Of a stretch of DNA of 64,000 nucleotides, positions 4,201 to 48,826 are shown in pieces; the stretch's first letter is position 1; each line of letters starts with the position of its first letter. Location of the stretch: the IMG/VR virus record IMGVR_UViG_3300011008_000999; one strand, written 5' to 3'. Position numbers and translations under genes: made by a program. Under the pieces are notes generated by a model. The model ran no database searches. It saw nothing but the letters and a program-made list of their open reading frames with translations, and was not told where the DNA came from. Source of the stretch: a virus (lineage: Duplodnaviria > Caudoviricetes).

Positions 4201-6430
4201 TGTTATCTTTCTCCTTTTTGATTATACTATTGAAGTTATCTTCATCAAACTGATCATATACAGCTTCATCAGTTGTATCAATATCTTCGATCTCATCTTC
4301 AAGTGTAAGCACATATCCGATGGACTTAAGAATCTCAATAAACTGCATTGATAACTTCGGATTCTTAGGAAGAGTACGTTTCTCTTCAATATCAGTTACA
4401 AGCTTATGTGAACCAACATACTTAGTAATAGAACGAATACCAAGTTCCTTAAGAATGTTAGGACAATCATTAGCTACAAGGTTAAGTTTCTCCATCTCAC
4501 CAAAACGAAGAGTTCTAGTATAACCGTGATCAGCAGAAGAACAACTAACCTTTGTTGAAGCATGGTGATAAAGTCTCATGATATGGTTGATACCTACAGG
4601 AATGATGTTCTTAATTCCCTTGTACTCAATAATAGAGTTTTTAGAATAAGTAGCCATCTGTTTCTTATACTTCTCAATCATAATTGAGATATAATCTTCA
4701 CCATCAAACTTAATTCCTGATGCTCTGGCCCATGCTTCAAAGATCTGACCTAATGAACCACGTCTCATAGTTGAGAAACCTGAGATAACAACTTCAAGAG
4801 GACCTGCTTCCATATTACCAACTTTCTTGGTAAGTCTAGGCATCTGATCATCAGGAAGAATAAGACCTACAGTACCTTTAGCACCATGAAGATTAGTGAT
4901 TTTATCTCCAAGTCTGAAAGGAATTTCCCAAGTAATAAATACACGAACATTGTTTACATCAACATCATCAATCTTAGAGATCTTAACGTTTTCATAACCA
5001 AGTAAAATCGCATAGTTCTTAGTAGGGAAAATCAACTGAAGCGTATCTATATCAATTTCATTAGTGGAATTGTAGATCTTTTCAAGAGCAGTAAATACCT
5101 TGGACTTCTTGTTAAGATATAAGATTGTGCTGTCGTATGTTCTAAGTCTCTTTGCAAAAGATTCAGAAATAACGATTGAGTCAGCAGATGTATATCCTTC
5201 AAGATCAGTAAATCCAACTCTTGCTTCAATACGATGTGTAATATCATCGATCTCATCTGCAAGAGGCACTGCCTGAGAAGTCATCTTCGCATTCATCATG
5301 ATTCTCTTAGGTTTGTCGTTGTTACAGAAAGGTGACTCAGACAAACACGAAAGACGTTTAGTCTGAGGCATATCTACATATTCATACATATTATGCAGAT
5401 TACCCTTATCATCAACAATCCAAAGAAGACCGTCTTTAACTACTACATTATCGAGCAACAGTCTCTGACGACCTGCAGCTTTAGATGTAACAGTCTTAAA
5501 TGAATCGAAGAATCCATTTGTATCTTTGTATGTGAATGCAGGCTGGAAAGATCCGCCGCTATTATAGATATTTGCACAAGTTCTGAAGTTCTCAAGAGCG
5601 AAAATCTTACTTTCAGAACGAACGAGGCAACCTTCAAGGTGTTCACCAAGATCATTGTATCTCTTACTCTTACTTACAATGATTGTGTTTACTCCTAAGA
5701 GAATTCCTTTAGTAGGCTGTGCATATTTTCCAGATTTAAGAACTGCTTCCTCGAAGTATTCAAGTCTAGAAAACTTGTAGTTGAAAATACTATCTGAATC
5801 GAACATAGGAAGCTTTCTAAGAGCTTTAGTAAAGTTCTCAGTAGTTAACTTCTCACCGATAGTAGTTTCAAGAAGCATCTTCGATCTCTTAGAAAGATGA
5901 TTATTGAAGATCTCTTCAATGGTAGGCTCGAACTTGTACTCTTCTTTAGTAACTACACATTCGAATTTATCCTTACCAATATCGTATTTCCAACCTTCAC
6001 CTCTAACAGTTTCGAAGTCAAGCTTACCTACACAACTGTAATAATCCTTTACTGCTGTAACACGAGTTACATAATGTGATCTATTAATGATCCAACAAAG
6101 GTCAATGGAAGGTGTAGGCATAGCACCAATAAGGTACTGCTTTCCATTGTAATCTCCTAATATGTCGATACACATATTATGGAAATTAAGTCTCAGCTTA
6201 TAACTATTAGGTGTCTGTTTGTCGGCTTCTGCATTAAGAAGTCCTGTATTAAGATTTTTTGCCAGCTTACACGGCTCTGCGGTGTTCCAGTACTTTGCAC
6301 AATCGGCATCAATCTGCGCCTGAATTGTAGCAAAGTCATCTTCTTCATTGATTGGACTCACACCGAGAAACTTTTGATTTGCCTGTGTCCAATATACAAG
6401 CTCGTTTTGGTATAATTCCTGGATAATCAT
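4178..6430 (-). CDS. rpoB: RNA polymerase beta subunit (reduced)
   Basis: RIMMNAKMTSQAVPL, GDKITNLHGAKGTV, RFGEMEK motifs. Confidence 0.9.
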   Translation of the reverse strand: MIIQELYQNELVYWTQANQKFLGVSPINEEDDFATIQAQIDADCAKYWNTAEPCKLAKNLNTGLLNAEADKQTPNSYKLRLNFHNMCIDILGDYNGKQYLIGAMPTPSIDLCWIINRSHYVTRVTAVKDYYSCVGKLDFETVRGEGWKYDIGKDKFECVVTKEEYKFEPTIEEIFNNHLSKRSKMLLETTIGEKLTTENFTKALRKLPMFDSDSIFNYKFSRLEYFEEAVLKSGKYAQPTKGILLGVNTIIVSKSKRYNDLGEHLEGCLVRSESKIFALENFRTCANIYNSGGSFQPAFTYKDTNGFFDSFKTVTSKAAGRQRLLLDNVVVKDGLLWIVDDKGNLHNMYEYVDMPQTKRLSCLSESPFCNNDKPKRIMMNAKMTSQAVPLADEIDDITHRIEARVGFTDLEGYTSADSIVISESFAKRLRTYDSTILYLNKKSKVFTALEKIYNSTNEIDIDTLQLIFPTKNYAILLGYENVKISKIDDVDVNNVRVFITWEIPFRLGDKITNLHGAKGTVGLILPDDQMPRLTKKVGNMEAGPLEVVISGFSTMRRGSLGQIFEAWARASGIKFDGEDYISIMIEKYKKQMATYSKNSIIEYKGIKNIIPVGINHIMRLYHHASTKVSCSSADHGYTRTLRFGEMEKLNLVANDCPNILKELGIRSITKYVGSHKLVTDIEEKRTLPKNPKLSMQFIEILKSIGYVLTLEDEIEDIDTTDEAVYDQFDEDNFNSIIKKEKDNNASESDD

Positions 6431-6491
6431 TAGCTAAATCCTTTCATAATATTTTATATAGAAAGTGGATAATGGTGTCTCTTAATATTTT

Positions 6492-6507
6492 TTATATCTT
6501 ACAATTT
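6492..6507 (-). promoter_or_regulatory. Class II upstream motif AAATTGTAAGATATAA
   Basis: Identical 16-mer at 31187..31202; variants near 32032 and 9686. Confidence 0.55.
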
Positions 6508-6517
6508 AACTTAATAA

Positions 6518-7066
6518 TTACTGCTGATTTTCTGCAGCAGCCTGGCGCTCCGCCTCACACTGACGAACAATCGCGTTAACCATGTGAGGAAGATAACCAT
6601 TTACTGCGTCATGAGTAAAGATCATAAGTGAGCGGAACTTATCGATAGTCATACCAACACCGATCTTAAGATCTGGCGAACCATCAGGAGCAATTGCTCC
6701 AGTTTCAGTAATCTTACCTTTTCCGCGAGACATATTGATGAAGATCTTGTCCCCAGATCTGCCCAAAGAGAAGATGCGTGATTCCGGTGCACCATTATAA
6801 TTCTTAGAACTCTTTGAACCACCCATAGAGATAGTCTTCTGACCAGCTTCCAACTCTTTAATAAGACGTCCACTAGCTGCATCTGTTGCGAGCAATGCTA
6901 CCTCTTCAAAATCGAGATAACAATCAATGGACGTCTTATCTGTGTAGTTTGCATTCTGAAAACGCACCTTTTCGATTCCGAATGCATCATAATATACATT
7001 TGTAACTACCTTATTGGTACTAGCCTTGGTGATTTTAGATTTTTCAAATTTATCATTACGATTCAT
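6518..7066 (-). CDS. Hypothetical protein
   Basis: 182 aa ORF with RBS and own promoter. Confidence 0.7.
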   Translation of the reverse strand: MNRNDKFEKSKITKASTNKVVTNVYYDAFGIEKVRFQNANYTDKTSIDCYLDFEEVALLATDAASGRLIKELEAGQKTISMGGSKSSKNYNGAPESRIFSLGRSGDKIFINMSRGKGKITETGAIAPDGSPDLKIGVGMTIDKFRSLMIFTHDAVNGYLPHMVNAIVRQCEAERQAAAENQQ

Positions 7067-7105
7067 ATTTTCTCCTTAATCACCATTATCCACCACTATA
7101 TTACT

Positions 7106-7140
7106 ATTATATACTGTTTATCTAAATTTGTAAATAGTTT
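7106..7140 (-). promoter_or_regulatory. Class I sigmaA-like promoter AAACTA-TTTACA-N17-TATAAT (representative of about 18 copies)
   Basis: Exact 17-bp spacer checked here and at 13242, 15468 and 18057. Confidence 0.85.
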
Positions 7141-7200
7141 CTTGTTCAAAAAGAATAAAAATTTGCCAGAGTTAATTACTTAACCCTAGCAAACTTTATA

Positions 7201-8181
7201 TTAATCTACAACTGTGAAATTAGAATCAGGATGATTCTCTAAGTACTCAGCAAAAGCTGATTTTGTACTAATATGAAGTGTAACTGTATTACAATCTTTA
7301 AATAAAGTACTATATGCATCAACTTCTTCTCCAGAATTATCACTAGTTTCAACTACTGTTGCATCAAAATCCTTGTTAGCATAGAAATCTGTAAGTGCTG
7401 TACACTCTCTACACATTTCCTGATTTACAGATTCTACATTATTTATATCTAGATTAGTAAGATTAGCACATCTAAAGAATACAATTGAACCAAGTGTTTT
7501 GCAAGTATCTGGAAGCTTAACTTCAGTTACACCTGCTGCAAAGAACGCTGCGTCTCCAATACTTTCTACCTTAGTCCAAGTAAGATTATTGAGTCTTACA
7601 CAACCTTGGAAAGCATAACTCTTAATCTCAGTTACATTATTGAAATCAACTGAAGTGATTGAAGAACATCCAGAGAATGCACCATTACCAATAGAAGTAA
7701 TACCATCAGGAATAGTAATAACTCCCTTTTCACTACCAAAAGTAGTAAGTCGTGTACATCCATTGAACATATTATCAGGGATCTCAGTAAATGTGGTAGG
7801 GAAGTTCAAAATTTCCTCAACTCTAGAATTTGCAAAAGATACATTCTCGAGAACTACATCTGTATTCATAAAGTATACTGTATGAAGTAAAGATTCTGCA
7901 GGAACATATACATTTGAAATCTTAGTTACGTTCTCAGGAAAGATAAGATCCATTGCTGCTCTACCATTTTCAGATAAACCGATGATCTCAGTCTTATTTT
8001 CATTTCGATAAATGAAATCACCATCAGTTACTGGACTATCCTGCTCTTCAGCCTGTGCAATTACTTTCTCAGTTGGAGTAGGAGTAATATCTGTAGACTG
8101 CTCTACTTTTTCCTTTCCACATGCGGCTAACATAGTTGTCATTGCAACAAGACAAATTGTTACTAGTGTTCTTTTCTTCAT
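7201..8181 (-). CDS. BspA/TpLRR leucine-rich-repeat lipoprotein
   Basis: Lipobox LAAC; repeats such as IPDGITSIGNGAFSGCSSITSV. Confidence 0.85.
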   Translation of the reverse strand: MKKRTLVTICLVAMTTMLAACGKEKVEQSTDITPTPTEKVIAQAEEQDSPVTDGDFIYRNENKTEIIGLSENGRAAMDLIFPENVTKISNVYVPAESLLHTVYFMNTDVVLENVSFANSRVEEILNFPTTFTEIPDNMFNGCTRLTTFGSEKGVITIPDGITSIGNGAFSGCSSITSVDFNNVTEIKSYAFQGCVRLNNLTWTKVESIGDAAFFAAGVTEVKLPDTCKTLGSIVFFRCANLTNLDINNVESVNQEMCRECTALTDFYANKDFDATVVETSDNSGEEVDAYSTLFKDCNTVTLHISTKSAFAEYLENHPDSNFTVVD

Positions 8182-8202
8182 TTTATAATTTCCTTTCTTT
8201 AT

Positions 8203-9216
8203 TTAGACACCAAACTTACGCTTAATGCTGTCTACATCAAATGAAATATTTTTCTCTTTCTTAATCTGAGCTTTTGCTATTTCTGTAAGCATCTTAAGCG
8301 AAAGAGTGTTATCTTTACCTTTAACCCATTCATGTAAGATTTTATTAAGTTCACTTATATGAATAAGTTTAGTATTACTTTCATACCACTCATCTGTACG
8401 AATAATGTCTACTGGCATATCACCAACTATACATACATAACCATCAATAGAATCCAATTGAATTCCATTCGACTTCATTACTTCTTGCCAAATATGAGTA
8501 GATGGATGAACTTCAATGATCTCTTTACCTTTATCTGCATCAACTACACACCCATTCATGAGCATTAATGACTGACCTTGTTTGATCTTAAGATTCTTAG
8601 CATCTACTACTAAAAGATTATTTCCATATACTAATAGAGTATCAGTATCAGGTATATAGTCTTTTTCTGATTGTTTAGGTGGTTCATCTACACTTATTGA
8701 ATAATCTCTAATAACTTCACTTGCAGGACTACTTTCAATAAGTAGTTCATTACCAAAATAATCATTTGCACTTACATGAATAATCATTCCATTTGAGTAT
8801 TTCAGTAATACTTCATCACCATTTTGTTCTGTATTAGCTAAAGTTGCATTTTCAAGTGAATTAACAAATTTTGCTCTTTCTTTGTCTTCGAACCTATATG
8901 CAAGACTAGCAAATGCTACTAATCCGTTAAGTTCATCATCGTATTTAACTAGTCTAGTTAAAAATTCACAAAGATCTTCTTCACCTTTAATGCCGGCTTT
9001 TGTTTTAGATATTTGACCTTCAAGTTCAGGATCTTTCATTTCCCAATCAGTTTTGCCAAATTCTCTACTATCTCGTTTTTCTTCTAATTGTGCTAAGGTT
9101 TGTCTTAAACCTTCACCAGGATCTCCAATTACTCTATTACCAGCAACTAGATAGTTACGTACGTTAATAGCTAATTGTTTATCCTCAGGTCTTATACCAT
9201 CCTGATTTAGTTTCAT
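8203..9216 (-). CDS. NERD-like nuclease domain protein
   Basis: GIKGEE...DTDTLLV...VVDAKN pattern. Confidence 0.55.
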   Translation of the reverse strand: MKLNQDGIRPEDKQLAINVRNYLVAGNRVIGDPGEGLRQTLAQLEEKRDSREFGKTDWEMKDPELEGQISKTKAGIKGEEDLCEFLTRLVKYDDELNGLVAFASLAYRFEDKERAKFVNSLENATLANTEQNGDEVLLKYSNGMIIHVSANDYFGNELLIESSPASEVIRDYSISVDEPPKQSEKDYIPDTDTLLVYGNNLLVVDAKNLKIKQGQSLMLMNGCVVDADKGKEIIEVHPSTHIWQEVMKSNGIQLDSIDGYVCIVGDMPVDIIRTDEWYESNTKLIHISELNKILHEWVKGKDNTLSLKMLTEIAKAQIKKEKNISFDVDSIKRKFGV

Positions 9217-9229
9217 ACTTAACCTCCAA

Positions 9230-9673
9230 TTATAATATCTGACAAGCTATTTGCTCAATATTTTTTATTATATCTTCTAAATAATCATTGCGTGTTTTTA
9301 ATTCTCTAATCTGTTGTTCGAGCATAGCTATTTTTGTATTATCGCTACATTCAATATACGATTTATTACAAACTTTTCTATTTAGATCATTTTTAATTTC
9401 TGTATCAGATTTACTTTTTATTATATCCACAACAGAATTGTGTTCTGAATATAATAAGTCATTTTCACTACATTGTAAATAATTGCATAATAGACTTAAT
9501 TTTTGCCTATCTATAATACCAGTTTTTATTACACTATCTATATATGGTTTACGTTCTCCAATTGCATGTGCTATTGATGTTAACGTTAACTTATATACAT
9601 ACGCATAATATTTAATAACATGTATATTGATAGCAACTATATCTTTAGTTAAATCTGAATTATGTTTTGTCAT
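9230..9673 (-). CDS. HTH DNA-binding protein with coiled coil
   Basis: Xre-like helix pattern. Confidence 0.45.
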   Translation of the reverse strand: MTKHNSDLTKDIVAINIHVIKYYAYVYKLTLTSIAHAIGERKPYIDSVIKTGIIDRQKLSLLCNYLQCSENDLLYSEHNSVVDIIKSKSDTEIKNDLNRKVCNKSYIECSDNTKIAMLEQQIRELKTRNDYLEDIIKNIEQIACQIL

Positions 9674-9770
9674 TATTATTTTTTCTTATACTTACAAACA
9701 AGAATGCAATTGATCTAAATCAACTACATTCTTTTGCTTCTATAAACTTATAGAATTAAATAGCACTTCG

Positions 9771-10541
9771 TTAGCTATTCTTCGATGTAAGTTCATTGAG
9801 CTTAAGTTGTAGCTGACTAATCTGACTAAATGCAGAATCCATAAGATTAAGAAGATCACTAAGCTGATTATTAAGATCATCAAACTCTTCTTTATCAATA
9901 AGAAGCTTTACATGAGATTTACCTTCAGCATCAGTTATCACTAACTGAGAATAACCAACAGGAGTAACTTCTTTCTTTGCTACTTTAGGTTCGATCTCAG
10001 GCTTAAGTTCTTTCGTTTCTTCTTTAATTTTAGGCTTAACTGAAACTTTTGTTTTAGGTTTATCTGTCTTAGGCTTCGGTGTATATTCATATTTAATGAA
10101 CTTAGACTTACCGACACGAAGAATTTCACACATTTTGTTAAAAGATTCTTCGTTCATTTTACCAGTCTTTACACATGAACCTACGTAATTATAAGTATAA
10201 CCCATCTTAGTACTTAATGAATCCATAGAGAGTCTAATCTCTTTAAGATACTTTTTAAGGGCGGTACCTTTGATCTTTACTGTATTACCAATAGATACTT
10301 TAGTGCCTGTATGATACATATTCTTTTCATCATCAACAGTAAGAATATTATCATCTGTACCAAGTAAATTACACATAGTCTTGTAAGCATCAGCAGACAT
10401 CTTGCCGTTCTGCAAACAATTGTAAATGTAACCATCAGAATAACCAAGAAGCTTGGATAAAGAAGACATATTATATCCATTAAGCTCCATGTATTCTTTT
10501 ACCTTAGTGGTGTCTATATTAACGTACGTATAGGTTTCCAC
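9771..10541 (-). CDS. Tandem Xre-like HTH protein
   Basis: Two repeats of LS..xGY...Y+..C+..GKM. Confidence 0.6.
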   Translation of the reverse strand: METYTYVNIDTTKVKEYMELNGYNMSSLSKLLGYSDGYIYNCLQNGKMSADAYKTMCNLLGTDDNILTVDDEKNMYHTGTKVSIGNTVKIKGTALKKYLKEIRLSMDSLSTKMGYTYNYVGSCVKTGKMNEESFNKMCEILRVGKSKFIKYEYTPKPKTDKPKTKVSVKPKIKEETKELKPEIEPKVAKKEVTPVGYSQLVITDAEGKSHVKLLIDKEEFDDLNNQLSDLLNLMDSAFSQISQLQLKLNELTSKNS

Positions 10542-10558: not shown

Positions 10559-11671
10559 CTATTGAGTCTCACGACTAATATATTCGAGTATCTCTGTTGA
10601 CATTTTAAGACCATCAACAAGTCTATTAAATTTATCTTCTTCGACAAGAACATAATTCTTTCTGTCGATTGAGATCTTAACTAAATCAATCTGTGCAGGA
10701 ACTATTTCATTAAAGAGGGGAATAATAGTCTTTGCTGATTCACTAAGATTTACTCCAGAATGATTATTCTTGTCACTTTCGGATGACATATTAAGTACTT
10801 TATTATCATCTGTTTTGGTATTCTTTGGTGACATTCTGGGAACTTCTGGAGTATCATCAATTACAGCATTTTCATTAATACTACTAAGCTGAATAATATA
10901 GTTTTCTACTTTATTATTAAGACGCTTTCCGTTAGACAAACAGTATGATACATAAGTGGGACCCATTCCACATTCAATAGAAATATCTTTAGAAGTCTTT
11001 CCTGTTTTCTTAATTAGATCTTTCATCTTAGCTTTATAATCAGCATCGCTAAGAATATTTTTATCTTCAGTCTCTGGAACAGTTATAACAGGTACAGAAT
11101 CGATCTTCTTTACTACCACTGGTCTTACATCATTAAGTACTTTCATAAGTTCATTATAAAATGACTCATGCATTCTACCAGTCTGCATACAAGAATTGAT
11201 ATAACCTGCACTCTTACCATGGTTAATACAAAACTCTGCTCTCTTAATATTAGACGCCTTTAACTTAGCCTGAAGTTCTACCTTATCAAATTCAACTATA
11301 CCAATAACTTCTCTTTTTCTTCCTGATTTTGTTTTAGGTTGATTTTCTTCATTATATTTAGGAACATTGATTTTTGTAGCAGTCAGAACATGCTCAACAT
11401 CCTGTGTGTTATTTTCATGATTCTGCGCAAATACATATTTACCATCAGTAGAGAATGTAGGATATAATACTCTAAAGAAATCACATAACATGATATATGT
11501 AGCCTTAGGCATTTTCTTCTCTGCTAAACACTTATCAATAAAACCTTCTTCTTTAAAGACAACTTTAGACTCAATATAATTATTATTAAGTCCAGCTGCA
11601 ATTATAGTCGCCTTAATTACATTTACATCAAGATTTACTAAATACTCACATTTTTCTTTTCCCATAATCAA
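10559..11671 (-). CDS. Multi-HTH repeat protein
   Basis: Three repeats related to those in 9771..10541. Confidence 0.55.
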   Translation of the reverse strand: MIMGKEKCEYLVNLDVNVIKATIIAAGLNNNYIESKVVFKEEGFIDKCLAEKKMPKATYIMLCDFFRVLYPTFSTDGKYVFAQNHENNTQDVEHVLTATKINVPKYNEENQPKTKSGRKREVIGIVEFDKVELQAKLKASNIKRAEFCINHGKSAGYINSCMQTGRMHESFYNELMKVLNDVRPVVVKKIDSVPVITVPETEDKNILSDADYKAKMKDLIKKTGKTSKDISIECGMGPTYVSYCLSNGKRLNNKVENYIIQLSSINENAVIDDTPEVPRMSPKNTKTDDNKVLNMSSESDKNNHSGVNLSESAKTIIPLFNEIVPAQIDLVKISIDRKNYVLVEEDKFNRLVDGLKMSTEILEYISRETQ

Positions 11672-11722
11672 TGTCCTTTTATAAAAATAAATATAAACGC
11701 TACAATAAACAGAGGCTAAGTC

Positions 11723-13210
11723 TTATGACTTAGTCTCTGCATAAAACATTTTTCTAAGAGTTACTGCATCTCTAGGAAGTAAGTCTCTCTTTTCAGCAGT
11801 ATTCTCATTATAGAGCTTCTTACAAAATTCATAGAACTTAAGCGCAAGCTCATCTTCAATAAGGTCTTCTCTCTTGTACTTTCCATACTTAAGAGTTCCC
11901 TGCGCAATAGATCTCATAAACTTCCAGAATTTATAGAATGCAAGCTTAACCTTAACCATATAACCATCAGCAGCTTCTACTACAAATCCTTCGATCTGAC
12001 GACCTTCGTATAAGTAATCATTTGCAGTAACAGTTTTGTACCAATCTACAAATTCTTCGTAAGTATCAATTACACACGCCTTAGTCTTATACTTAAGACC
12101 AAGATCCTTTGCTATATCTACAAGCTGCTCATAAGGAAGCTGTTCAAAGTCCATCTTATTCTTAATAATTGCTATCAAGAAAAGCTGATTTTCAGCATAA
12201 TCAATAATGTGAGGATCATTCTTCATATCTACATTTTCAAAGACAAAAGTAACATTCTCATTTTTAGAGAAGTTTTTCATCTTTTCAATGTTTTCAGAAG
12301 TCATATTTCTCTCAATTGCTTCTCTTAACCATACTGAGAAATCACCTTCAGGTGAAGACTTAGTAGTAACAAAAAGATCATCAGTCTCTTCATTATATGA
12401 AGCAAGACCAAGATAACCATTTTCCTTTACATAGCAAGTTACAGGAAACTTCATAGTCTTAAGGTTACCAAGCTGAGTAGATTCCATTTCACCGATATTA
12501 AAGAACTTATTAAAACCACGCGCAACGATCTTACCTAACTTAGTGTTAATGTAAAGACCTCTTGCAACTATAGTCTGATTATCCCATACACCAGAATAGA
12601 AAGCTTCTCTAGTAAAGTTAAATGATGAGATATTTCCATAAGACTTTTCAGCCACACAAGGATTAGATCTCATATTGTCAATAACTTCATCTATATCATC
12701 AAGCTTTACTTCTGATTTAACAGTAGAAATCTTATCAAATTCTTCAGGCTTAATAACCTTTACATATGAAGGAACTTCACACTGTTCAAAGTTATGATAC
12801 ATTCTATCAATAACTTCTTCAGGAACACGTCTAAATGCTTCACGAGATGCATTTCTTCTCTTGCACTCTTCAATAGGAAGATCAGTGAAATCAATCACAA
12901 ATGCATGATAATTGTATCTCTCAACAAGTGACTTATAAGAGTTAATTTCTCTAGTAGTTGAGTGAGTTGCGTCTATAATAGTATAAAGACCAAATGACAT
13001 ACGAAGTTCAAGTAACTGATTAAGATACTTGAATACCTTGCCATTATATTCCTGAGAAATTTCAGATACTTCAGTAGAACCTGAATAAGAGTACATAAAC
13101 TGAAGTCTAAGATCATCAGTTGAAATGGTATAAGGTTCTAACTTGTTGTTCTTTATGAAAGTTGATTTTCCGCAACCAGGTGCACCACGAAGAATTATTA
13201 ATGATCTCAT
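11723..13210 (-). CDS. Polynucleotide kinase (AAA_33) fused to Rnl1-like RNA ligase
   Basis: GAPGCGKST Walker A; KFFNIGE, KENG, EGFVV, KVK ligase motifs. Confidence 0.85.
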   Translation of the reverse strand: MRSLIILRGAPGCGKSTFIKNNKLEPYTISTDDLRLQFMYSYSGSTEVSEISQEYNGKVFKYLNQLLELRMSFGLYTIIDATHSTTREINSYKSLVERYNYHAFVIDFTDLPIEECKRRNASREAFRRVPEEVIDRMYHNFEQCEVPSYVKVIKPEEFDKISTVKSEVKLDDIDEVIDNMRSNPCVAEKSYGNISSFNFTREAFYSGVWDNQTIVARGLYINTKLGKIVARGFNKFFNIGEMESTQLGNLKTMKFPVTCYVKENGYLGLASYNEETDDLFVTTKSSPEGDFSVWLREAIERNMTSENIEKMKNFSKNENVTFVFENVDMKNDPHIIDYAENQLFLIAIIKNKMDFEQLPYEQLVDIAKDLGLKYKTKACVIDTYEEFVDWYKTVTANDYLYEGRQIEGFVVEAADGYMVKVKLAFYKFWKFMRSIAQGTLKYGKYKREDLIEDELALKFYEFCKKLYNENTAEKRDLLPRDAVTLRKMFYAETKS

Positions 13211-13276
13211 AATTAAGTATCTCCTTAAATATTATGAGTTTATTATAACATGATTAGTTTTATTTGTAAATAGTTT

Positions 13277-14002
13277 TTAGATACGTTCATATCTAGGCAT
13301 AAGACTTACTTTATGAAGATTAAGTCTATGTCTACGTTCAATATTCTCTTTCTTCTTAGGATCATCGATCTCACCAGTCTCAATATAATGATCAAGTTCT
13401 GCATAAGTGAAACCGAGATTATCTTCATCAGTCTTACCACAAAGACCATCAGAAGGTGTCTTATGTACAAGATCTTTCGGAAGTCCAAGAGCATCACCAA
13501 TCTTAAGCATATCCGTTACAGTGAACTCACAGCAAGGACTGAAATCACCTATGCTATCACCAAACTTTGTAGAATAACCTACATAATCTTCAGAGCAGTT
13601 GCAAGTATTACATACTCTACCACCATTAGGAAGAGACTGTGCAATTGCATAAAGTGCAGTCATTCTAAGTCGCGGAGCAATATTGATTTTAGTATCTTCA
13701 GATGGATTATCAAGCTGTCCCATAAGACCATTAAATGCATCTGCAATATTTACTGTATAACTCTTAATACCTAACAGATCAATAACTCTCTGACTATCTG
13801 AAATATCTTTCTGTTCTCCATTAGGCATCATAACACCAACTACTCGATCTTTACCGAGAGCATCTACAAGAAGTTTGGCAATTATGGTAGAATCTTTACC
13901 ACCGGAAATACCGATTACCGCACTTGCCTGCGGACCATTTGTCTTAAACCATTCTTTAATCCAGCTTTTAATTCCTTCAATTTCAAAATTTACATCAAAC
14001 AT
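13277..14002 (-). CDS. nadE: NH3-dependent NAD+ synthetase
   Basis: GISGGKDS, NIAPRLRM, GYSTKFGD, PSDGL. Confidence 0.95.
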   Translation of the reverse strand: MFDVNFEIEGIKSWIKEWFKTNGPQASAVIGISGGKDSTIIAKLLVDALGKDRVVGVMMPNGEQKDISDSQRVIDLLGIKSYTVNIADAFNGLMGQLDNPSEDTKINIAPRLRMTALYAIAQSLPNGGRVCNTCNCSEDYVGYSTKFGDSIGDFSPCCEFTVTDMLKIGDALGLPKDLVHKTPSDGLCGKTDEDNLGFTYAELDHYIETGEIDDPKKKENIERRHRLNLHKVSLMPRYERI

Positions 14003-14004
14003 AT

Positions 14005-14418
14005 TTAAGCCTCCTTAAAATGATGCTTTAGAATATCACATACTTGTTTTGATTGTTTATACCAAATATGGTTTTTACCATATCTAGATTCTATTTCATT
14101 TAATCTTTCTGCTATAGTGACTTCTTCGCCTGTAGGACTTGTAGTCATATCAGCAAGATTTATAATCAGCCATTCCATATCTACACTAGTTGGAATAGTT
14201 CCATGAGACCTAATGTAGTCAGCATGTCCCCAACCTTTTAATAGGTCAGCTCCAATTTCTTCATGCCATTCAGGATCAAATTCATAACCGATATCATGAT
14301 TCCATCCTAAAGCAAACATTTCTCGTGCATACTGCTCATCATAACCAAGGTCTATAGTTATTTTATATGCTTTACGCGCAACTCCTAAGATATGATGCAG
14401 TCTATTTTCTGTTATCAT
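14005..14418 (-). CDS. HD-domain phosphohydrolase (YqeK-like)
   Basis: RLHHILGVA...HDIG...H...LAD. Confidence 0.7.
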   Translation of the reverse strand: MITENRLHHILGVARKAYKITIDLGYDEQYAREMFALGWNHDIGYEFDPEWHEEIGADLLKGWGHADYIRSHGTIPTSVDMEWLIINLADMTTSPTGEEVTIAERLNEIESRYGKNHIWYKQSKQVCDILKHHFKEA

Positions 14419-14921
14419 AGTTTCTTACCTTTTAGATATTTGTAAAAATCTGCATCAATATACTTCTTATACTTATTAGGATCTTTACGTATCTTTGTAC
14501 CAGAAATATTGATCTTACTTCTATCTGCAATTATAAAATAGTGATATGGATATAACTCACTTAATTTACTTGCATAATGTTCTTCACCAGTATACCAACA
14601 ACAAGTATTTTCATTTGGATTTATATTTGCGTTAGTAAAAAGTTCTTTACACCAAGCTCTCCAAGCAGGAATATCAAACTTACCGGAAAGACCAATTTTC
14701 TTATCGTCAATAGGAACCACTATAATGTTAGGATTATCTTTATATTTAGTTTTCATTAACTCTATACGAGTTCTAAATGGAAGGAAGTCTTTTCCTCTAT
14801 CATCATCAAAGCCGCAAACGCCAATAATAACAGTACTATTTTCCTTAATAGCTCTATTTATTAGAGATAAGTGACCTTGATGAAGAGGAATAAAACAACC
14901 AAATACTATGCCTATTTGCAT
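14415..14921 (-). CDS. NadR/NadM-like (Na)MN adenylyltransferase
   Basis: GCFIPLHQGH (HxGH), ISGTKIR; NAD gene context. Confidence 0.75.
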   Translation of the reverse strand: MQIGIVFGCFIPLHQGHLSLINRAIKENSTVIIGVCGFDDDRGKDFLPFRTRIELMKTKYKDNPNIIVVPIDDKKIGLSGKFDIPAWRAWCKELFTNANINPNENTCCWYTGEEHYASKLSELYPYHYFIIADRSKINISGTKIRKDPNKYKKYIDADFYKYLKGKKL

Positions 14922-14929
14922 GTTACTCC

Positions 14930-15436
14930 TTAAACAATATCGACCTGGAAAGTCTTCATTGCTTCAATAGCGGTTTTATGAGTATCAGGAGTTACACAAG
15001 CACAAAGTCTCTCGATTACCTTAACAGTAGTTTCAGGACAAAATGCTTTAGCAAGTGCAACATTACTGATTACACAGATTCCTGTACATACGCCGCAAAA
15101 CTCAACATAGTCAAAACCATTGTTCTTGATATAGTTAGCAAGATCTACACTACCGAAAGTAGGCTTATTGAATATATTTGCTTTTGCAGGAACGTTGATT
15201 CCATCAACGATCTGCCATCCTTCAGTACTTTCAATACAGTGAACAACCGGAAGCTTGCTACCTTCCTGAGTCTCCATATAGTTAGGCTGGTGAGTATCTC
15301 TTGTAAAAACTACTTCTCCATCAAAAGTCTTTACATAGTCATTGATATCACCGACGATCTTCTGTGCTTCTGTATTTGCAAGAGTTCCAGTAACGAAGTC
15401 ATTCTGCATATCTACAACAACTAAAAGTTTCTTCAT
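14930..15436 (-). CDS. pncA: Nicotinamidase (isochorismatase family)
   Basis: VVDMQNDF, DTH, HC, K-TFGS, GVCTGICV. Confidence 0.85.
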   Translation of the reverse strand: MKKLLVVVDMQNDFVTGTLANTEAQKIVGDINDYVKTFDGEVVFTRDTHQPNYMETQEGSKLPVVHCIESTEGWQIVDGINVPAKANIFNKPTFGSVDLANYIKNNGFDYVEFCGVCTGICVISNVALAKAFCPETTVKVIERLCACVTPDTHKTAIEAMKTFQVDIV

Positions 15437-15505
15437 AAGATTTCTCCTTTATAAATTGATTTATTTTATTATAACATGAAAATTTTATGTTGTAAATAGT
15501 TTTTG

Positions 15506-15973
15506 TTATGCATTGTGCTCATCTATAAACTTTGCTGTATTGATAAAGATCTGTTTTAACTGATCATCAATCTGATAACGTTCAGCATTCTTAGTAATAG
15601 ACGTAAGAAGGTTACCATTATTTTGACGTTCTGACGAAGCCTTCCAATCTGCAAACATTTCTATAGTATCAATTAAATTCATATCATTGATACCTTTAGT
15701 AAAATGCTCAGGATGATGTCTATTCTTTGCATAATGTGACGGAAGAGCAGTAACTTTTAATTCTGCAAGTGATGCATTATATTCATCTGATCCATAAGTA
15801 AGACCACTAAGCTTATCATTAACTCTAGCAAACTCTTCTGCTTCAGGACTCTCAAGCTTACTTCTATCATGATCTATACCACGTTGAGTAAGTGCATCTG
15901 TAAATATCTTAATATACTTACGTACATTTTCGATATGTTTAATAGTGTCTAATTTGCTTTCAGCAAGTTTCAT
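15506..15973 (-). CDS. DUF5662-like HD-related protein
   Basis: HDRSKL, HYAKNRHHPEHF, EMFADW. Confidence 0.6.
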   Translation of the reverse strand: MKLAESKLDTIKHIENVRKYIKIFTDALTQRGIDHDRSKLESPEAEEFARVNDKLSGLTYGSDEYNASLAELKVTALPSHYAKNRHHPEHFTKGINDMNLIDTIEMFADWKASSERQNNGNLLTSITKNAERYQIDDQLKQIFINTAKFIDEHNA

Positions 15974-15993
15974 ATACTTTATCGTCCTTTCTA

Positions 15994-16305
15994 TTATTCC
16001 CAGCTATGTGAAATACCTGTTACTAATTCATCAAGTTCTGCGAAAAATTTTTCATGTGAATCTTCCCATTTATTTTCAAGCTGTTCTGAATATGTAGCAA
16101 CTTCACCACCACATTCATATTCTACATAAATATATACTTCACCACTGGTTTTTACTGCTACCCAGCCATAATAAAGATTTGAAAATCTAATACGCTTCTC
16201 AAAACAATTTCGAAGTTGACCTGTTACACTAGATCTTGTATATTTAAAACCATGCTCAGTAAGTATATTTTTTGATTGACTTAAATCTTCACTTAATATA
16301 CCCAT
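15994..16305 (-). CDS. Hypothetical protein
   Basis: ORF in operon. Confidence 0.6.
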   Translation of the reverse strand: MGILSEDLSQSKNILTEHGFKYTRSSVTGQLRNCFEKRIRFSNLYYGWVAVKTSGEVYIYVEYECGGEVATYSEQLENKWEDSHEKFFAELDELVTGISHSWE

Positions 16306-16481
16306 TAGTTTTCTTCCTCCTTTTTCATAATTTTACCACAAAATGGGCATTTATTTGGTCTTATTTCAGTTCCATGAGAATTTATAGGTGCATCCATTTT
16401 ACATGAGGCACATCTGTATCTATAAAACTCATTATCTCCAAAATTTTTACAGTACTCTTCCCAATAACTAGTATTTTCCAT
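16305..16481 (-). CDS. Small zinc-ribbon protein (below ORF-track cutoff)
   Basis: MENTSYWEEY...CASC...CPFCG with RBS. Confidence 0.55.
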   Translation of the reverse strand: MENTSYWEEYCKNFGDNEFYRYRCASCKMDAPINSHGTEIRPNKCPFCGKIMKKEEEN

Positions 16482-16557
16482 AATATCTCCTATTTATGTT
16501 TAGCATAAAATTCCTTAAATCGTTCAAAAGTACTATCCATACACATTAAGAACTTAA

Positions 16558-16764
16558 CTATATCTGGATCTGTCTTAACATGTGTAGCTCTAAAATGCAA
16601 ATATCAGGTTTACTATGTTCCCAAATACTTACTTCAAGTTCAAGTGGACCATCAATATAACCTGTACTACCTGTACCGTACGAATCAATTTCTACATCAT
16701 CAGGTAGATTTTTTAGAATTTCTTTTAACGCACCAACTGTAGTAATTGGATATATTGTTGTCAT
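16558..16764 (-). CDS. Hypothetical protein
   Basis: TVGALKEILKNLPDD, a common small phage protein start. Confidence 0.55.
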   Translation of the reverse strand: MTTIYPITTVGALKEILKNLPDDVEIDSYGTGSTGYIDGPLELEVSIWEHSKPDICILELHMLRQIQI

Positions 16765-16776
16765 TAAATCACCTTC

Positions 16777-18009
16777 TTAATAAATAACTACAACTGTTCC
16801 AACTTCAACTGCATCATATAATTCATAAGAAAAATCAAGTGGAAGGTTAATACATCCATGAGAACCATTTGTGATATAAGTCTCAGGATTTTCAAAATCT
16901 GATGCAGGTCTCCAAGTAGCGTCATGAAGTCCATGTCCGCGTTCAGTAAATCTCATCCAGTTCTTTCCAGAAAGACCACCATCAAATGCAATTCCATGAA
17001 ACATACTAGAAATCTGATATACGCCTATAGGTGTATCAGTTATATCAAGTTTTCCAGTAACTACTTTAGATTTAAGTTTAAGCTCTCCATCTACATAATA
17101 CCAAAGATACTGATCTTTAATAGATATCTCAATAAATGTATTAGGAATTTCAAACATATAAGGATGTGTGAACCTATACTCTTTGAATTCCTCTCTATTT
17201 ACAAATTCAGATTCATTATCTGCAAGAAGAATAGGTACTCTATTTGTTTCAGACTCAAGTGAGCAAATCTTATCTTTGATATAAAGATATTCTTTCTGAA
17301 AATCTACTCTATTTCCATAAGTACTTATACAATAGCAATCTTCAGCTGACTTTATATATATAAGACCATTAACTGGAGAGTTAAATTCCCAAGTATTATA
17401 ATAAGTATTGTACTTATCAGCCTTTTCTTTTACAAGTTCGATTACGTGATTATTAAACTCTTCAGAATCAAAATGAGTAGTAATAGTATTTGAACTTACA
17501 GTAACAAAATCTTTAAGATCATAAATATTGATATACTCGTTATTTGTATACTGAATTGTAAAGTTAATATAACGACTAAGAATACCAACAAGTCTATCAT
17601 ATTCCATAGAAGGTCCGTTATCAGACATAACAAAGTCTTTAACATCAATAGTAGACTTAGGCGCAGATTCTTTAATCTTATCATATAACTTATCTATATC
17701 AATAAGATTAGTTTCTACATACTCAGTTACTCTTAATCCTTTCTCATCCCAGACAAGAGTAGGATATGTATTATCATGTCTACCAGCATTTAGTGATTTT
17801 AGATATTCCTTAGTGACAGTATTCTTATCAATCTCAAGTATATTATTGTTACTAACTACAGATACGGTATTACAAATAGGTTCAGCAATAATTTCTTCTA
17901 TTTGACTGGCTTCTACATTCTTAGAACAAGCTGCTATAGTACAAACTCCAGTAATTGTTACAATTGCAAGTATAATAGGAAATGCAAGTTTAGTTAAATG
18001 TCTCATCAT
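16777..18009 (-). CDS. L,D-transpeptidase (YkuD domain), membrane anchored
   Basis: GLHDATWR...GSHGCINLP catalytic motif. Confidence 0.9.
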   Translation of the reverse strand: MMRHLTKLAFPIILAIVTITGVCTIAACSKNVEASQIEEIIAEPICNTVSVVSNNNILEIDKNTVTKEYLKSLNAGRHDNTYPTLVWDEKGLRVTEYVETNLIDIDKLYDKIKESAPKSTIDVKDFVMSDNGPSMEYDRLVGILSRYINFTIQYTNNEYINIYDLKDFVTVSSNTITTHFDSEEFNNHVIELVKEKADKYNTYYNTWEFNSPVNGLIYIKSAEDCYCISTYGNRVDFQKEYLYIKDKICSLESETNRVPILLADNESEFVNREEFKEYRFTHPYMFEIPNTFIEISIKDQYLWYYVDGELKLKSKVVTGKLDITDTPIGVYQISSMFHGIAFDGGLSGKNWMRFTERGHGLHDATWRPASDFENPETYITNGSHGCINLPLDFSYELYDAVEVGTVVVIY

Positions 18010-18091
18010 ATCTCCCTTAAGAATTAAATTCTCTTTTGATTTATATTTACGAATTTATTATAATATGCAAATGTTACCATGTAAATAGTTT

Positions 18092-18310
18092 TTATGCTCT
18101 AGCATTCCAACGTTTTAAAGCTTCACTAGTTACATATTCTCTAGCAGTTTTAAGTGTTTCTAAATCTATATCTTTAAGTACTTTAGAATTTATTGGACCT
18201 CTAGCATGACAGCTATTACATCTACCACTAGCTTTCATAGTATAGCAAGACTTAGTAACTTGAATTTTTACTTTATTACTTCCACAGAATGGACATGCTA
18301 ACTGATTCAT
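18092..18310 (-). CDS. Lar-like zinc-finger protein
   Basis: CPFCG...CNSCHARGP...WNAR. Confidence 0.65.
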   Translation of the reverse strand: MNQLACPFCGSNKVKIQVTKSCYTMKASGRCNSCHARGPINSKVLKDIDLETLKTAREYVTSEALKRWNARA

Positions 18311-18388
18311 TTATTTTTCTCCTTTTCCTAATTAAAATGGGCACCGAATACTCGGCACCCATTATGTAACTTTATGTTGATGAGTTAC

Positions 18389-19606
18389 TTACTTTTCATT
18401 AGCCATTCTCCAATCAATGGCTCTCTGAAGATACTCAACATACTCAGGATTCTTACACATTCCTTTACCAGGAGTATCAGAAATCTTTGCAACATCCTGT
18501 CCATTACAGAATGTAGTCTTCATTACAATGTTGAGTGCAGGTACATCAGTGTCATTTGCAAGGTAAGTACCAATACCAAATGCGACCTTTGCCTTTTCTC
18601 TAAAGTATCTGCAGATCTTATCAGCTCTCTCAAAGTTAAGACTATCAGAGAAGAGAAGAGTCTTTGTTTTAGGATCGATACCAAGCTTCTTGTAATGAGC
18701 AATCATCTTCTCACCCCATTCGATAGGATCACCAGAGTCATGACGAACACCACTGAACAGAGTAGCATAAGTAAGATCAAAGTCTTTAAGGAAGCAATCA
18801 GTTGTAATTGCATCTGTAAGAGCAGTTCCGTTAAGGATTCCATACTCATTTACCCATGCTCTAAGTGCATAATAGTTAGAGTATGCCGGATTGTGCTTAT
18901 GATCTCCCTGACCTACACACATGATCCACTCGTGTGCCATAGTACCGACCGGAATAACTCCAAATTTCTTTGCGAGATATACATTAGAAGTACCGATAAA
19001 TCTGCTTGCGCTATGCATCGTATCATTGAGATGACTGAACTTCTGAATTGCAAGTTCCTGCGCTTCTGCAGAAAGTCTACGTCTAAGACCAAATTCAGAG
19101 AATGTGCCAAGGTAATACTTACCATGCTTAACATCCTCGAACTTAGCATCGAGACGTTTCTTAAAGCTATCTATAAGCTCATTGTAATTGTACTGCATTC
19201 TGAAGTAAACTTCATTTACGATTGCCAATGTAGGGATCTCATACATAGAAGTATTTACCCAAGTTCCTTTAGTCTCAATAGAAAGACCGCACTCTGCATT
19301 AGTAGTGATCTCAAAATCTTCGAATCGAGGCTGCCAGATTCTAAGGAAATTGATATAGCTGCCCTTGAACCATTTGATCTGATCGAGATACTGAAGTTCA
19401 TCTTCAATGAATCTCAGCTGACAGTATGCCTTGATCTGTTCCTTGATCTCTTCTACCATCTCAGGAGTAAAATGAACATCTTTATTACGACACTTGAATG
19501 TCCAAGTAGTCATGTATTCAGGGAACTGATGATAAATTGCCTGACCCATAGAAAACTTATAAAGGTCAGTTTCCAAAAGACTGTTAATAATCTGATTGAG
19601 TTTCAT
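18389..19606 (-). CDS. pncB: Nicotinate phosphoribosyltransferase
   Basis: TDLYKFSM, EFGLRRR, GTMAHEW, GVRHDSGDP, AKISDTPGK. Confidence 0.95.
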   Translation of the reverse strand: MKLNQIINSLLETDLYKFSMGQAIYHQFPEYMTTWTFKCRNKDVHFTPEMVEEIKEQIKAYCQLRFIEDELQYLDQIKWFKGSYINFLRIWQPRFEDFEITTNAECGLSIETKGTWVNTSMYEIPTLAIVNEVYFRMQYNYNELIDSFKKRLDAKFEDVKHGKYYLGTFSEFGLRRRLSAEAQELAIQKFSHLNDTMHSASRFIGTSNVYLAKKFGVIPVGTMAHEWIMCVGQGDHKHNPAYSNYYALRAWVNEYGILNGTALTDAITTDCFLKDFDLTYATLFSGVRHDSGDPIEWGEKMIAHYKKLGIDPKTKTLLFSDSLNFERADKICRYFREKAKVAFGIGTYLANDTDVPALNIVMKTTFCNGQDVAKISDTPGKGMCKNPEYVEYLQRAIDWRMANEK

Positions 19607-19836
19607 GTTTGTAACTTCCTTTCTTATTTATTCTGTTCATTCATGAACTTTTCTGCAGCTTCTTTAGTATCAAATGATCGTTCACTGGGACCAAGTAGAC
19701 TAGTAGCATCTCCATATACTACCCAGTATTTATTACCTTCTTTATACATATATGCCTTCATATAAGTACCTCCATTTAATTTATAAATAAATTATAACAT
19801 GAAGACAACAAAAAGTAAATAGTTTTAGTAATTATT

Positions 19837-43800: not shown

Positions 43801-44235
43801 TTAAAATCGTTCCATCTCTCTTTTCATATCTTTTTCTTTAATTGATTGACGTTTGTCATAATTATGCTTACCTTTACATATACCGAGAAGAACTTTAACC
43901 TTATCATTCTTCATGTACATCTTTAAAGGAATAAGAGTAATTCCATTGTCAATTAACTTGTTCTTAAGGGACCTAATTTCCTGCTTATGAACAAGTAATC
44001 TTCTATTTCTTCTTTCTGCTACATCATAGTCCATAGCTTTATCATACTTAGCAATATGAGTGCCAATAAGAATAAGTTCATTATTTTCAATAGAAATATA
44101 TGAATCCTTAAGATTACATGAACCTTTCTTTATAGACTTAATTTCATGACCTTTGAGCTCAATACCACATTCAATGGTATCAAGCACAAAATAGTCATAA
44201 TAAGCTTTTCTATTTTCTATGTTAATAGAATTCAT
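43801..44235 (-). CDS. smpB: SsrA-binding protein
   Basis: NRKAYYDY, GIELKGHEIKS, RRLLVHK, GKHNYDKR. Confidence 0.95.
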   Translation of the reverse strand: MNSINIENRKAYYDYFVLDTIECGIELKGHEIKSIKKGSCNLKDSYISIENNELILIGTHIAKYDKAMDYDVAERRNRRLLVHKQEIRSLKNKLIDNGITLIPLKMYMKNDKVKVLLGICKGKHNYDKRQSIKEKDMKREMERF

Positions 44236-44468: not shown

Positions 44469-44888
44469 TCATCCTTCAATATACTGTCTTACTACTCCCT
44501 GAGCCATCTTACCATCAAGAGCACTACCGAACTGCGCCTTAAGAGTCTTCATACATACACCAATGTTCTTCTCAATATTGTTAGTATTGAGGTACTCAAG
44601 AATCTGTTCTTCAGTAACTGCCTGAGGAAGCAGTCCCTGACAATAACCTACCTTTTCAGCAATCTCAGTTGCTCTTACAGAATCATTCTTTACATACTCG
44701 TATAAATCATTAAGCTGCTTGATCTCATTCTTTGCTGCCTTAATGAAGTCATCATCAGTTACAGCACGATTACCATCATTCTTTGCGATCTTCTGAGCAT
44801 TCTCAAGAATAGATCTATATGTAAGCTTTGCAGCCTCATTCTTGTCTTTCATTGCATCTTTAATTAGCATTCTTACTCTTGCTTCCAT
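44469..44888 (-). CDS. GatB/YqeY-domain protein
   Basis: IKDAMKDK...LLPQ...IG.CMK.LK...DGK. Confidence 0.8.
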   Translation of the reverse strand: MEARVRMLIKDAMKDKNEAAKLTYRSILENAQKIAKNDGNRAVTDDDFIKAAKNEIKQLNDLYEYVKNDSVRATEIAEKVGYCQGLLPQAVTEEQILEYLNTNNIEKNIGVCMKTLKAQFGSALDGKMAQGVVRQYIEG

Positions 44889-44910: not shown

Positions 44911-45468
44911 TTATACTAAGAAGCTTATACACTTCTTAATTTCATTCATAATATCATTATAGATTTCATCCATTGAGACAGGACCATTATTATGAGCATC
45001 TACTGCTACATTATATATATAAGGTCTATCTTCAAGGAACTTCTGCTTGCTATGCGTATGACCAAAAAGATTAAATACACAAGTCTTAGGATTACTGTTC
45101 AAATCTGCGGTAAGTGTAGGATAGTGACTAATATAGAACTTTCGTCCCTTATATTCGATCTGCTTAGCTAAACAAATCTCAATAATCTTATCACATCGCT
45201 TATATACTTCGATCTTAGCAGGAGTATCGTGATTACCAAGAATAAGAATAATCTTACCCTTGAGTATTTTCAATGTATTCTCTACAAACTCAATATCTGA
45301 GCCAAAAAAGAAGTCGCCATCTACAATAACAGTATCTTCATCAGTTACAATATTATTCCAATTTCTGATAAGAGTTTCATTTGATTCCTTACAAGACTTA
45401 AAGCCTCTTGGACCCCAAATAAACTCTCTATCATGATTAAAATGTAAATCAGACGTTAAATAAAGCAT
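44911..45468 (-). CDS. Calcineurin-like metallophosphoesterase
   Basis: SDLHFNH, GD, GNHD, SHYP, GHTH. Confidence 0.9.
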   Translation of the reverse strand: MLYLTSDLHFNHDREFIWGPRGFKSCKESNETLIRNWNNIVTDEDTVIVDGDFFFGSDIEFVENTLKILKGKIILILGNHDTPAKIEVYKRCDKIIEICLAKQIEYKGRKFYISHYPTLTADLNSNPKTCVFNLFGHTHSKQKFLEDRPYIYNVAVDAHNNGPVSMDEIYNDIMNEIKKCISFLV

Positions 45469-48484: not shown

Positions 48485-48826
48485 TCTTTGGACTGAAGTT
48501 CCATTACTCTCTGGTAAGCTTCTTCTCCAATAACATCCATTACGGCATTACCATGTTCTGGTGACTTTTTACAAATTTCCCAAATATCTTTAGCTACTTC
48601 AATTTCGATCTTTTCCATAATAGCATCCTTTCTTTTTATTAAGGAACCATCGCTGCTATCTTTCACTCCTACGATAGTGCACCTAACAGAAGATGTAGCA
48701 TTTACCGGCGCTCAACCTTTACTGTGCTATGAACGACTTTGCTCCAAGTTGAGCCGAGGCGGCTGGAACCATGAAACAAAACTTGTAGAATCCAAAATGA
48801 ATAAAATGACAAATCACTTTGGAAAG

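Follow-up and report, generated by a model that had tools for sequence, protein, structure and literature searches.

A Preiss-Handler-type NAD+ salvage module of Lachnospiraceae origin in a ruminant-gut jumbo phage

The 64,000-nt stretch of viral DNA analyzed here (the window) carries a cluster of genes for the salvage of nicotinamide adenine dinucleotide (NAD+): pncA, a gene for an adenylyltransferase with an HxGH motif, a gene for a small HD-domain protein and nadE, with pncB close by. The window corresponds to positions 143027-207026, read on the minus strand, of a 331,944-bp virus record that has direct terminal repeats. Its G+C content is ~34%, and all genes of the region lie on the minus strand of the window. 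Near-identical DNA was found in gut metagenome runs of cattle, sheep and goats from at least 12 studies, with no RNA run among those listed; the source is a ruminant-gut jumbo phage of ~332 kb. A nucleotide search with the NAD stretch against deposited phages gave no match.

The first-pass annotation had grouped pncA, the adenylyltransferase, the HD hydrolase and nadE into one operon with pncB nearby. We found all five genes where they had been placed (Table 1), with matches far beyond chance expectation. Within the operon the genes are tightly packed, in the order pncA, adenylyltransferase, HD and nadE, separated by an 8-nt gap, a 4-nt overlap of the HD start with the adenylyltransferase stop, and a 2-nt gap. 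The pncB gene lies ~3 kb upstream of this four-gene operon. The annotation had also assigned the operon a promoter, and this held as well, as promoters of one family precede both pncA and the 45-codon open reading frame followed by pncB. The sequence TATTTAC-N17-TATAAT occurs 13 times in the window against 0.02 expected, each time on the coding (minus) strand, and members of the family mostly have an extended -10 TG. Both units are probably transcribed by host RNA polymerase from these two promoters, and we infer that the module is expressed early.

Table 1. Features of the NAD+ salvage region, listed in the direction of transcription (positions in the window).
Feature	Position	Strand	Remarks
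Sigma-70/sigma-A-like promoter (TATTTACT-N17-TGTTATAAT)	19791..19821	-	Ahead of the 45-codon open reading frame and pncB
Small open reading frame, 45 codons	19624..19761	-	Between promoter and pncB; own GGAGG ribosome-binding site; read from the sequence
pncB, nicotinate phosphoribosyltransferase, 405 amino acids (aa)	18389..19606	-	TIGR01514, NF003704, PF04095, PF17767
Promoter of the same family (TATTTACA-N17-TGTTATAAT)	15468..15498	-	Precedes pncA; AAAGGAG ribosome-binding site downstream
pncA, nicotinamidase, 168 aa	14930..15436	-	PF00857, PDB 1ilw, catalytic and metal residues
Stand-alone NadR-family nucleotide adenylyltransferase, 168 aa	14415..14921	-	TIGR01526, PF01467; predicted substrate nicotinate mononucleotide (NaMN) and/or nicotinamide mononucleotide (NMN)
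Mini HD-domain phosphohydrolase, 137 aa, distantly YqeK-like	14005..14418	-	PF01966 at threshold, conserved metal ligands
nadE, single-domain ammonia-dependent NAD+ synthetase, 241 aa	13277..14002	-	TIGR00552, PDB 2e18/3fiu
Next promoter of the same family	13242..13272	-	Ends the NAD operon; starts the kinase-RNA ligase gene

Three of the enzymes were readily assigned. PncA matched PF00857 with an E-value of 4.7e-26, and its closest solved structure is the Pyrococcus horikoshii nicotinamidase 1ilw (3e-16), with which the catalytic residues D9, K91 and C121 and the metal site D47, H49 and H66 align. PncB and NadE both cleared curated equivalog cut-offs. The former scored 418 bits with TIGR01514 (cut-off 269.55) and 480 bits with NF003704, and matched PF04095 as well as PF17767. 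The latter matched PF02540 with an E-value of 1.5e-46, scored 155 bits with TIGR00552 (cut-off 63.65) and carries the PP-loop motif SGGKDS; its structure matches were PDB 2e18 (1.9e-33) and 3fiu from Francisella tularensis (1.7e-30).

The remaining enzyme of the route differs from what its position might suggest. An HxGH adenylyltransferase is indeed present, as had been annotated, but it is not a NadD. It scored 39.5 bits with PF01467 and contains the motifs PLHQGH (HxGH) and ISGTKIR (ISxTxxR). Its best models were the NadR-family TIGR01526 (E of 4.4e-26, over positions 1-157 of 325 only) and phrog_3462, whereas NadD models reached an E-value of ~1e-4 at best. The best solved relatives were Lactococcus lactis NadR (6gye, 1.5e-19), Escherichia coli NadR, the NARP3 protein Bas30_86 (9x6f, E of 1.3e-7) and Haemophilus influenzae NadR; 6gye, 8x7f, 9x6f and 1lw7 were the PDB entries matched. 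Only the first half of the NadR model was covered, and the model search found neither an RNK nor a helix-turn-helix domain in the protein. These profile and structure matches identify the enzyme as a NadR-family NMNAT domain that stands alone. We found no account, in the literature searched, of a stand-alone NadR-type enzyme encoded within a pnc operon. A second gene with a PF01467 or cytidylyltransferase-like match (45470-45940) was considered as a NadD candidate and rejected, as it encodes CoaD (TIGR01510, 149 bits, cut-off 103); it is the sole other gene of the cytidylyltransferase fold, and the genome holds no further NAD-type adenylyltransferase. This phosphopantetheine adenylyltransferase gene (minus strand) is flanked by genes for a metallophosphoesterase (44911-45468) and a YqeY-like protein (44469-44888).

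The HD protein reached 22.1 bits with PF01966 (cut-off 22). Its metal ligands H9, H41-D42, H52, H72 and D90 are kept across 29 homologues, and its structure model is confident (predicted local distance difference test score of 95). The YqeK model TIGR00488 did not match at an E-value of 0.01. Weak matches to YqeK structures came from the family profile (2ogi at 1e-3 and 8jja at 8e-3) and from Foldseek, whose top matches were YqeK structures (template modeling score ~0.6, E ~1e-2), and the profile also matched, at ~5e-6, the Butyrivibrio YqeK encoded by the gene after NadD. The HD domain is fused in frame to the NMNAT domain in a 394-kb relative and in two more sequence clusters, which share 80-95% identity. 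The HD protein may be a YqeK-like nucleotide phosphohydrolase and, by analogy, would be an accessory component recalling the nadD-yqeK pairing. That it might be a dedicated enzyme of the NAD pathway was weakened by its wider family (35-46% identity), which is common in rumen metagenomes: beyond the phage clade, none of 35 loci of at least 5 kb contained NAD genes. No relatives were found when viral contigs were scanned with the HD or the NMNAT protein alone, and no deposited phage matched the HD protein by tblastn. On a 290-kb phage contig (L010), five DNA methyltransferase genes form a run around an HD homologue (4229-9891 and 11573-12436), with an ADP-ribosylglycohydrolase close by.

The closest cellular NadE sequences came from Butyrivibrio and other rumen Lachnospiraceae. 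Among 80 Lachnospiraceae-type loci, NadE had PncB as a neighbor 26 times, PncA 23 times and the NadR-type enzyme 11 times. The genes for the NadR-type NMNAT, PncB and NadE adjoin in the isolates Butyrivibrio hungatei DSM 14810 and Butyrivibrio sp. X503, and pncA precedes them in B. hungatei. Between phage and Lachnospiraceae, protein identity was 76-81% for PncB, 63-69% for NadE (Butyrivibrio), 55-60% for PncA (copies in pnc operons) and 52-54% for the adenylyltransferase. In a maximum-likelihood tree, PncB of the window phage and of the 394-kb relative fell inside the Lachnospiraceae with 96/96 support; PncB of the 735-kb phage LR756501 was placed far away, which argues for independent captures. 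The bacterial pncA-NMNAT-pncB-nadE operon, seen in metagenome-assembled genomes too, encodes the same four enzymes as the phage, among them the uncommon adenylyltransferase of the NadR type; the identities span 52-81%. It often has NMNAT fused to PncB and it has no HD gene, whereas in the phage pncB lies 3 kb upstream behind its own promoter and the HD gene stands between NMNAT and nadE. By gene order and protein similarity, the phage module is a rearranged copy of the host salvage operon, with pncB moved and the HD gene inserted. The module is kept in the 394-kb relative, including pncB, with NMNAT and HD at 53-67% protein identity.

This gene content suggests how the enzymes might act in sequence. 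PncA would deamidate nicotinamide to nicotinate, from which PncB would make NaMN with phosphoribosyl pyrophosphate (PRPP) and ATP. The NadR-family adenylyltransferase would most likely convert NaMN to nicotinate adenine dinucleotide (NaAD), and NadE would use ammonia to convert NaAD to NAD+. A PncC-domain protein encoded outside the window (G000:C1:121472-121762; TIGR00199, 71.4 bits, cut-off 68.9) would, as an NMN deamidase, feed NMN released by the NAD+-dependent ligase of the phage into the NaMN hub. The net effect would be fast regeneration of NAD+ from breakdown products during infection.

The order of the middle steps was judged from gene fusions, from PncC and from the context of NadE. 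NMNAT::PncB fusions occur in several Butyrivibrio metagenome-assembled genomes, and a match within a 580-636-aa open frame was found in 9 of the 41 genomes sampled from the genus. We found no description of a fusion between a NadR-type adenylyltransferase and PncB in the literature searched. Two metagenomic proteins (P0180 and P0192) are NMNAT::NadE fusions. Since the adenylyltransferase is fused to both of its neighbors, it is most simply the middle step. PncC, as an NMN deamidase, makes sense only with NaMN as the hub. The single NadE of B. hungatei accompanies a canonical NadD-YqeK pair, and in Butyrivibrio sp. WCD3002 the NadE orthologue and NadD occur without a NadR-type enzyme; hence the phage-type NadE clade must accept NaAD. 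These data lead us to favor, with some confidence, the order NaMN to NaAD to NAD+, with the adenylyltransferase clade using NaMN. The five-gene region as a whole is rather likely to be a phage-borne Lachnospiraceae pyridine-nucleotide salvage module that regenerates NAD+ via NaMN. The NMNAT::PncB fusion, at ~580 aa, was seen in the Butyrivibrio loci L015 and L017-L021 and in the genomes G008-G013, G024, G026, G028 and G029.

What the module is for can be read in two ways. The same genome encodes several NAD+ consumers outside the window, namely a PARP catalytic domain (1279-1848), a KptA/Tpt1 protein (127052-127543) and the adenylation domain of an NAD+-dependent DNA ligase (239658-240317; all G000:C1). 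NAD+-dependent ligase releases NMN, and PARP and KptA release nicotinamide. These consumers together with the salvage set and PncC argue that the phage encodes a closed pyridine nucleotide cycle. From gene content, a module serving the NAD+ needs of the phage itself (ligase, PARP and KptA) would be as good a reading as counter-defense, and regeneration of NAD+ would equally buffer its loss to host NADase defenses. A dedicated counter-defense module would be the deamidating counterpart of NARP1-3, its main task being to rebuild NAD+ from the nicotinamide that NADases of the Thoeris, SIR2 or TIR type set free. This stronger version is conceivable, and we rate it below an even chance. Nicotinamide is both the product of those defenses and the substrate of PncA (PMC13464706), host-type promoters with an extended -10 fit early expression, and proteins with a SIR2_2 domain were found in 5 of the 41 genomes of the presumed host genus, Butyrivibrio. 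In addition, the adjacent kinase-RNA ligase fusion is of a tRNA-repair counter-defense type, and the role was already proposed by Li et al. 2024 (PMC11662467). However, no sequence feature links the module to defense over supply, and the genes closely resemble a housekeeping operon of the host, in a phage that itself encodes several NAD+ consumers. The route would also be slower and costlier than NARP1, as it takes four enzymes and 3 ATP plus PRPP per NAD+, and it does not recycle ADP-ribose.

Several observations weigh against the favored reading of the module. To our knowledge, the NadR enzymes of E. coli and H. influenzae have been assayed with NMN only. The NadD models stayed below their cut-offs on the phage adenylyltransferase (TIGR00482, 21.6 bits against 112). 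As the presumed hosts already have NadD-YqeK, the NadD step of the phage route might be left to the host enzyme. A search of the genome with PF13793 found no PRPP synthetase, which leaves PncB dependent on host PRPP, and the wider HD family lacks NAD genes in its surroundings, as described above. The phage NadE resembles the F. tularensis NMN synthetase 3fiu nearly as closely as it does any genuine NAD+ synthetase of solved structure, and its Gln122 aligns with Q133 of that enzyme. Finally, the characterized NadR-family adenylyltransferases of L. lactis (PMC7221760) and NARP3 (Bas30_86; PMC13464706) were likewise assayed with NMN only.

Two other assignments of the steps would accommodate some of these points. 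In the first, NadE would act as an NMN synthetase, converting NaMN to NMN, and the NadR-family enzyme would then convert NMN to NAD+. The usual substrate of the NadR family is NMN, the phage NadE scored higher against 3fiu (109.6 bits) than against Bacillus subtilis NadE (81 bits), and the NMNAT::NadE fusions are also compatible with this order. The residues that reportedly specify the NMN synthetase of F. tularensis are Y27, Q133 and R236 (Sorci et al. 2009). At these positions the phage NadE has G23 (or N22), Q122 and L227, such that one of the three is Francisella-like and two are not. An NMN-synthetase route is established in F. tularensis (PMC3376133). Nevertheless, the NMNAT::PncB fusions would then link non-consecutive steps, and the phage PncC would destroy the NMN intermediate. 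Moreover, an orthologue is the sole NadE in B. hungatei and occurs with NadD alone in WCD3002, so NaAD is used, and the closest solved relative is an archaeal NadE, a group without NMN synthetase activity in Methanocaldococcus jannaschii (PMC3376133). We therefore consider this order unlikely.

In the second assignment, the module would serve parallel branches, with an NMN-specific adenylyltransferase recycling NMN from the ligase, PncA, PncB and NadE boosting the flanking host steps, and host NadD making NaAD. The NadR-family precedent, release of NMN by the NAD+-dependent ligase of the phage and the presence of NadD in presumed hosts all agree with such a division of labor. It sits poorly with the location of the adenylyltransferase gene inside the pncA-nadE operon and with the fusion of its relatives to PncB or NadE, and the phage PncC would compete for NMN. 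We give it as little credence as the NMN-synthetase order. That the genes are recently captured passengers with no selected role is very improbable: their identity to host genes is high, but all reading frames are intact with catalytic residues retained, the module including pncB is conserved in the 394-kb relative, many homologues at 70-89% identity lie on 100-530-kb contigs, and the genes stand behind phage promoters in an order that differs from that of the host operon.

Returning to the favored route through NaMN, a bolder version of it can be stated, which we hold only tentatively and regard as rather doubtful. The phage enzyme would be the first NadR-family NaMN adenylyltransferase, the five-gene module would suffice to restore NAD+ and let the phage grow despite Thoeris, SIR2 or TIR-type defenses, perhaps with the HD protein removing a by-product or a signal derived from NAD, and the whole would represent a fourth, host-borrowed route of NAD+ reconstitution.

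Other genes of the region were noted. Directly downstream of nadE and behind its own promoter, a gene (11723-13210, minus strand) encodes an AAA_33-type kinase (residues 4-143) fused to an RNA ligase of the T4 Rnl1 type (residues 216-426). This fusion looks like a tRNA repair protein directed against anticodon nucleases. In the 394-kb relative, two SPFH/Band 7 genes (L008:9218-11109) separate nadE from the kinase-RNA ligase gene; the window has no such genes at this place. Between the pncA operon and pncB are genes for a DUF5662 protein (15506-15973, minus strand) and for a protein of 410 aa that ends in a YkuD L,D-transpeptidase domain (16777-18009, minus strand), and a YkuD gene lies near the module in the 394-kb relative too. 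Farther away, a large translation-support island (35948-62805, minus strand) comprises ~40 tRNA genes, a tmRNA (48826-49185, tag ANYGYAAA) and SmpB (43801-44235). A protein resembling nucleoside 2-deoxyribosyltransferases (46355-46807, minus strand) scored 25.2 bits with TIR_2, below the cut-off of 28; its substrates could be nucleotides or NAD-related compounds. A protein of 281 aa (47639-48484, minus strand) has an HD hydrolase domain of the SpoT/RelA type (HD_4) and may hydrolyze (p)ppGpp or alarmones.

Conflict over NAD+ is a central theme of phage-bacterium interactions, and the three phage routes shown experimentally include no deamidating one. The four-step Preiss-Handler route in jumbo phages is so far a metagenome-based proposal, for which this locus is a clean candidate for testing counter-defense: it is compact, intact, promoter-defined and traceable to culturable hosts (Butyrivibrio and other Lachnospiraceae). 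It also poses a question of enzymology that extends to bacteria, namely the use of NaMN by a NadR-family adenylyltransferase that is naturally fused to PncB or NadE. Should the module supply only the ligase, PARP and KptA of the phage, it would be a case of ordinary auxiliary metabolism.

The first-pass annotation had taken the gene content as a deamidating route from nicotinamide to NAD+ that is distinct from NARP1 and NARP2, and our searches of the genome bear this out. NARP1 consists of a PRPS-like Adps and Namat; no PF13793 match was found, and the single PF04095 protein is PncB, leaving no Adps and no second NAPRTase-family gene. NARP2 combines Nampt (NadV) with NMNAT; an NMNAT-type domain is present, but the sole NAPRTase-family gene passes the nicotinate-specific model and is of the PncB type. 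As the window phage would, NARP1 (Adps-Namat) and NARP2, with NadV-NatV of phage KVP40, regenerate NAD+ from breakdown products. They do so by two-step amidated routes, whereas the genome analyzed here lacks homologues of Nampt, Adps and Namat. NARP3, comprising PnuC and the NadR-like Bas30_86 (Yan et al. 2026, PMC13464706), has an adenylyltransferase domain homologous to the one described here (9x6f) and likewise rebuilds NAD+, but it imports nicotinamide riboside and needs its RNK domain. The window phage would start from nicotinamide and proceed through deamidated intermediates without PnuC or RNK: the genome has no PF04973 match, and the only match to PF13521 is a sub-threshold P-loop. PncA, PncB and NadE are not mentioned in the NARP papers.

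The further suggestion, that the module represents a third way of reconstituting NAD+ against defenses, is not a new idea. Jumbo phages with the Preiss-Handler pathway were described, and a role in counter-defense was proposed for them, by Li et al. 2024 (Microbiome, PMC11662467), and Bacillus phage G is annotated with the same four steps. Li et al. found complete salvage or Preiss-Handler sets, some of them clustered, in 174 of 668 animal-gut jumbo phages. Their "NAD-jumbo phages" also carry NAD+-consuming enzymes, and counter-defense against Sir2-type depletion was proposed alongside supply of the phage's own needs. The designation covers phages of >200 kb with a complete gene set and NAD+ consumers; the window phage has 331,944 bp, a Preiss-Handler set and the ligase, PARP and KptA. 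As in the window phage, their animal-gut jumbo phages have clustered pncB, adenylyltransferase and nadE genes and consumers of the NAD+ ligase type. In that study the adenylyltransferases were labeled nadD, nadM or nadR by KEGG, with their type left unresolved, whereas the window encodes a stand-alone NadR-family enzyme in a set traceable to Lachnospiraceae, with pncA, the HD partner and PncC elsewhere in the genome.

Other phages carry comparable sets. In phage G, also a jumbo phage, gp275, gp277, gp281 and gp283 are an isochorismatase/PncA-like protein, NAPRT, an adenylyltransferase and NadE, encoded within 6 kb and near an RNA ligase and KptA. The phage G adenylyltransferase is annotated as a nicotinate-nucleotide (NadD-type) enzyme, unlike that of the window, and since the phage G proteins are only ~33% identical to those of the window, that set is an independent acquisition. 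The 735-kb phage LR756501 encodes PncB, NadE, NadR-like and PncA-like proteins within 9 kb, and parts of the set occur in phage Phass-1 and in human-gut contigs. Among bacteria, the nadD-yqeK pair of Firmicutes resembles the phage arrangement in that an HD phosphohydrolase comes after the adenylyltransferase of NAD synthesis or is fused to it, and we confirmed this pair in Butyrivibrio. In the phage, the adenylyltransferase is of the NadR type and the HD protein has 137 aa, compared with ~200 aa for YqeK, and does not reach TIGR00488. From these comparisons we conclude that the window phage joins the already described Preiss-Handler "NAD-jumbo phages", to which it adds an enzymological twist in its stand-alone NadR-type enzyme.

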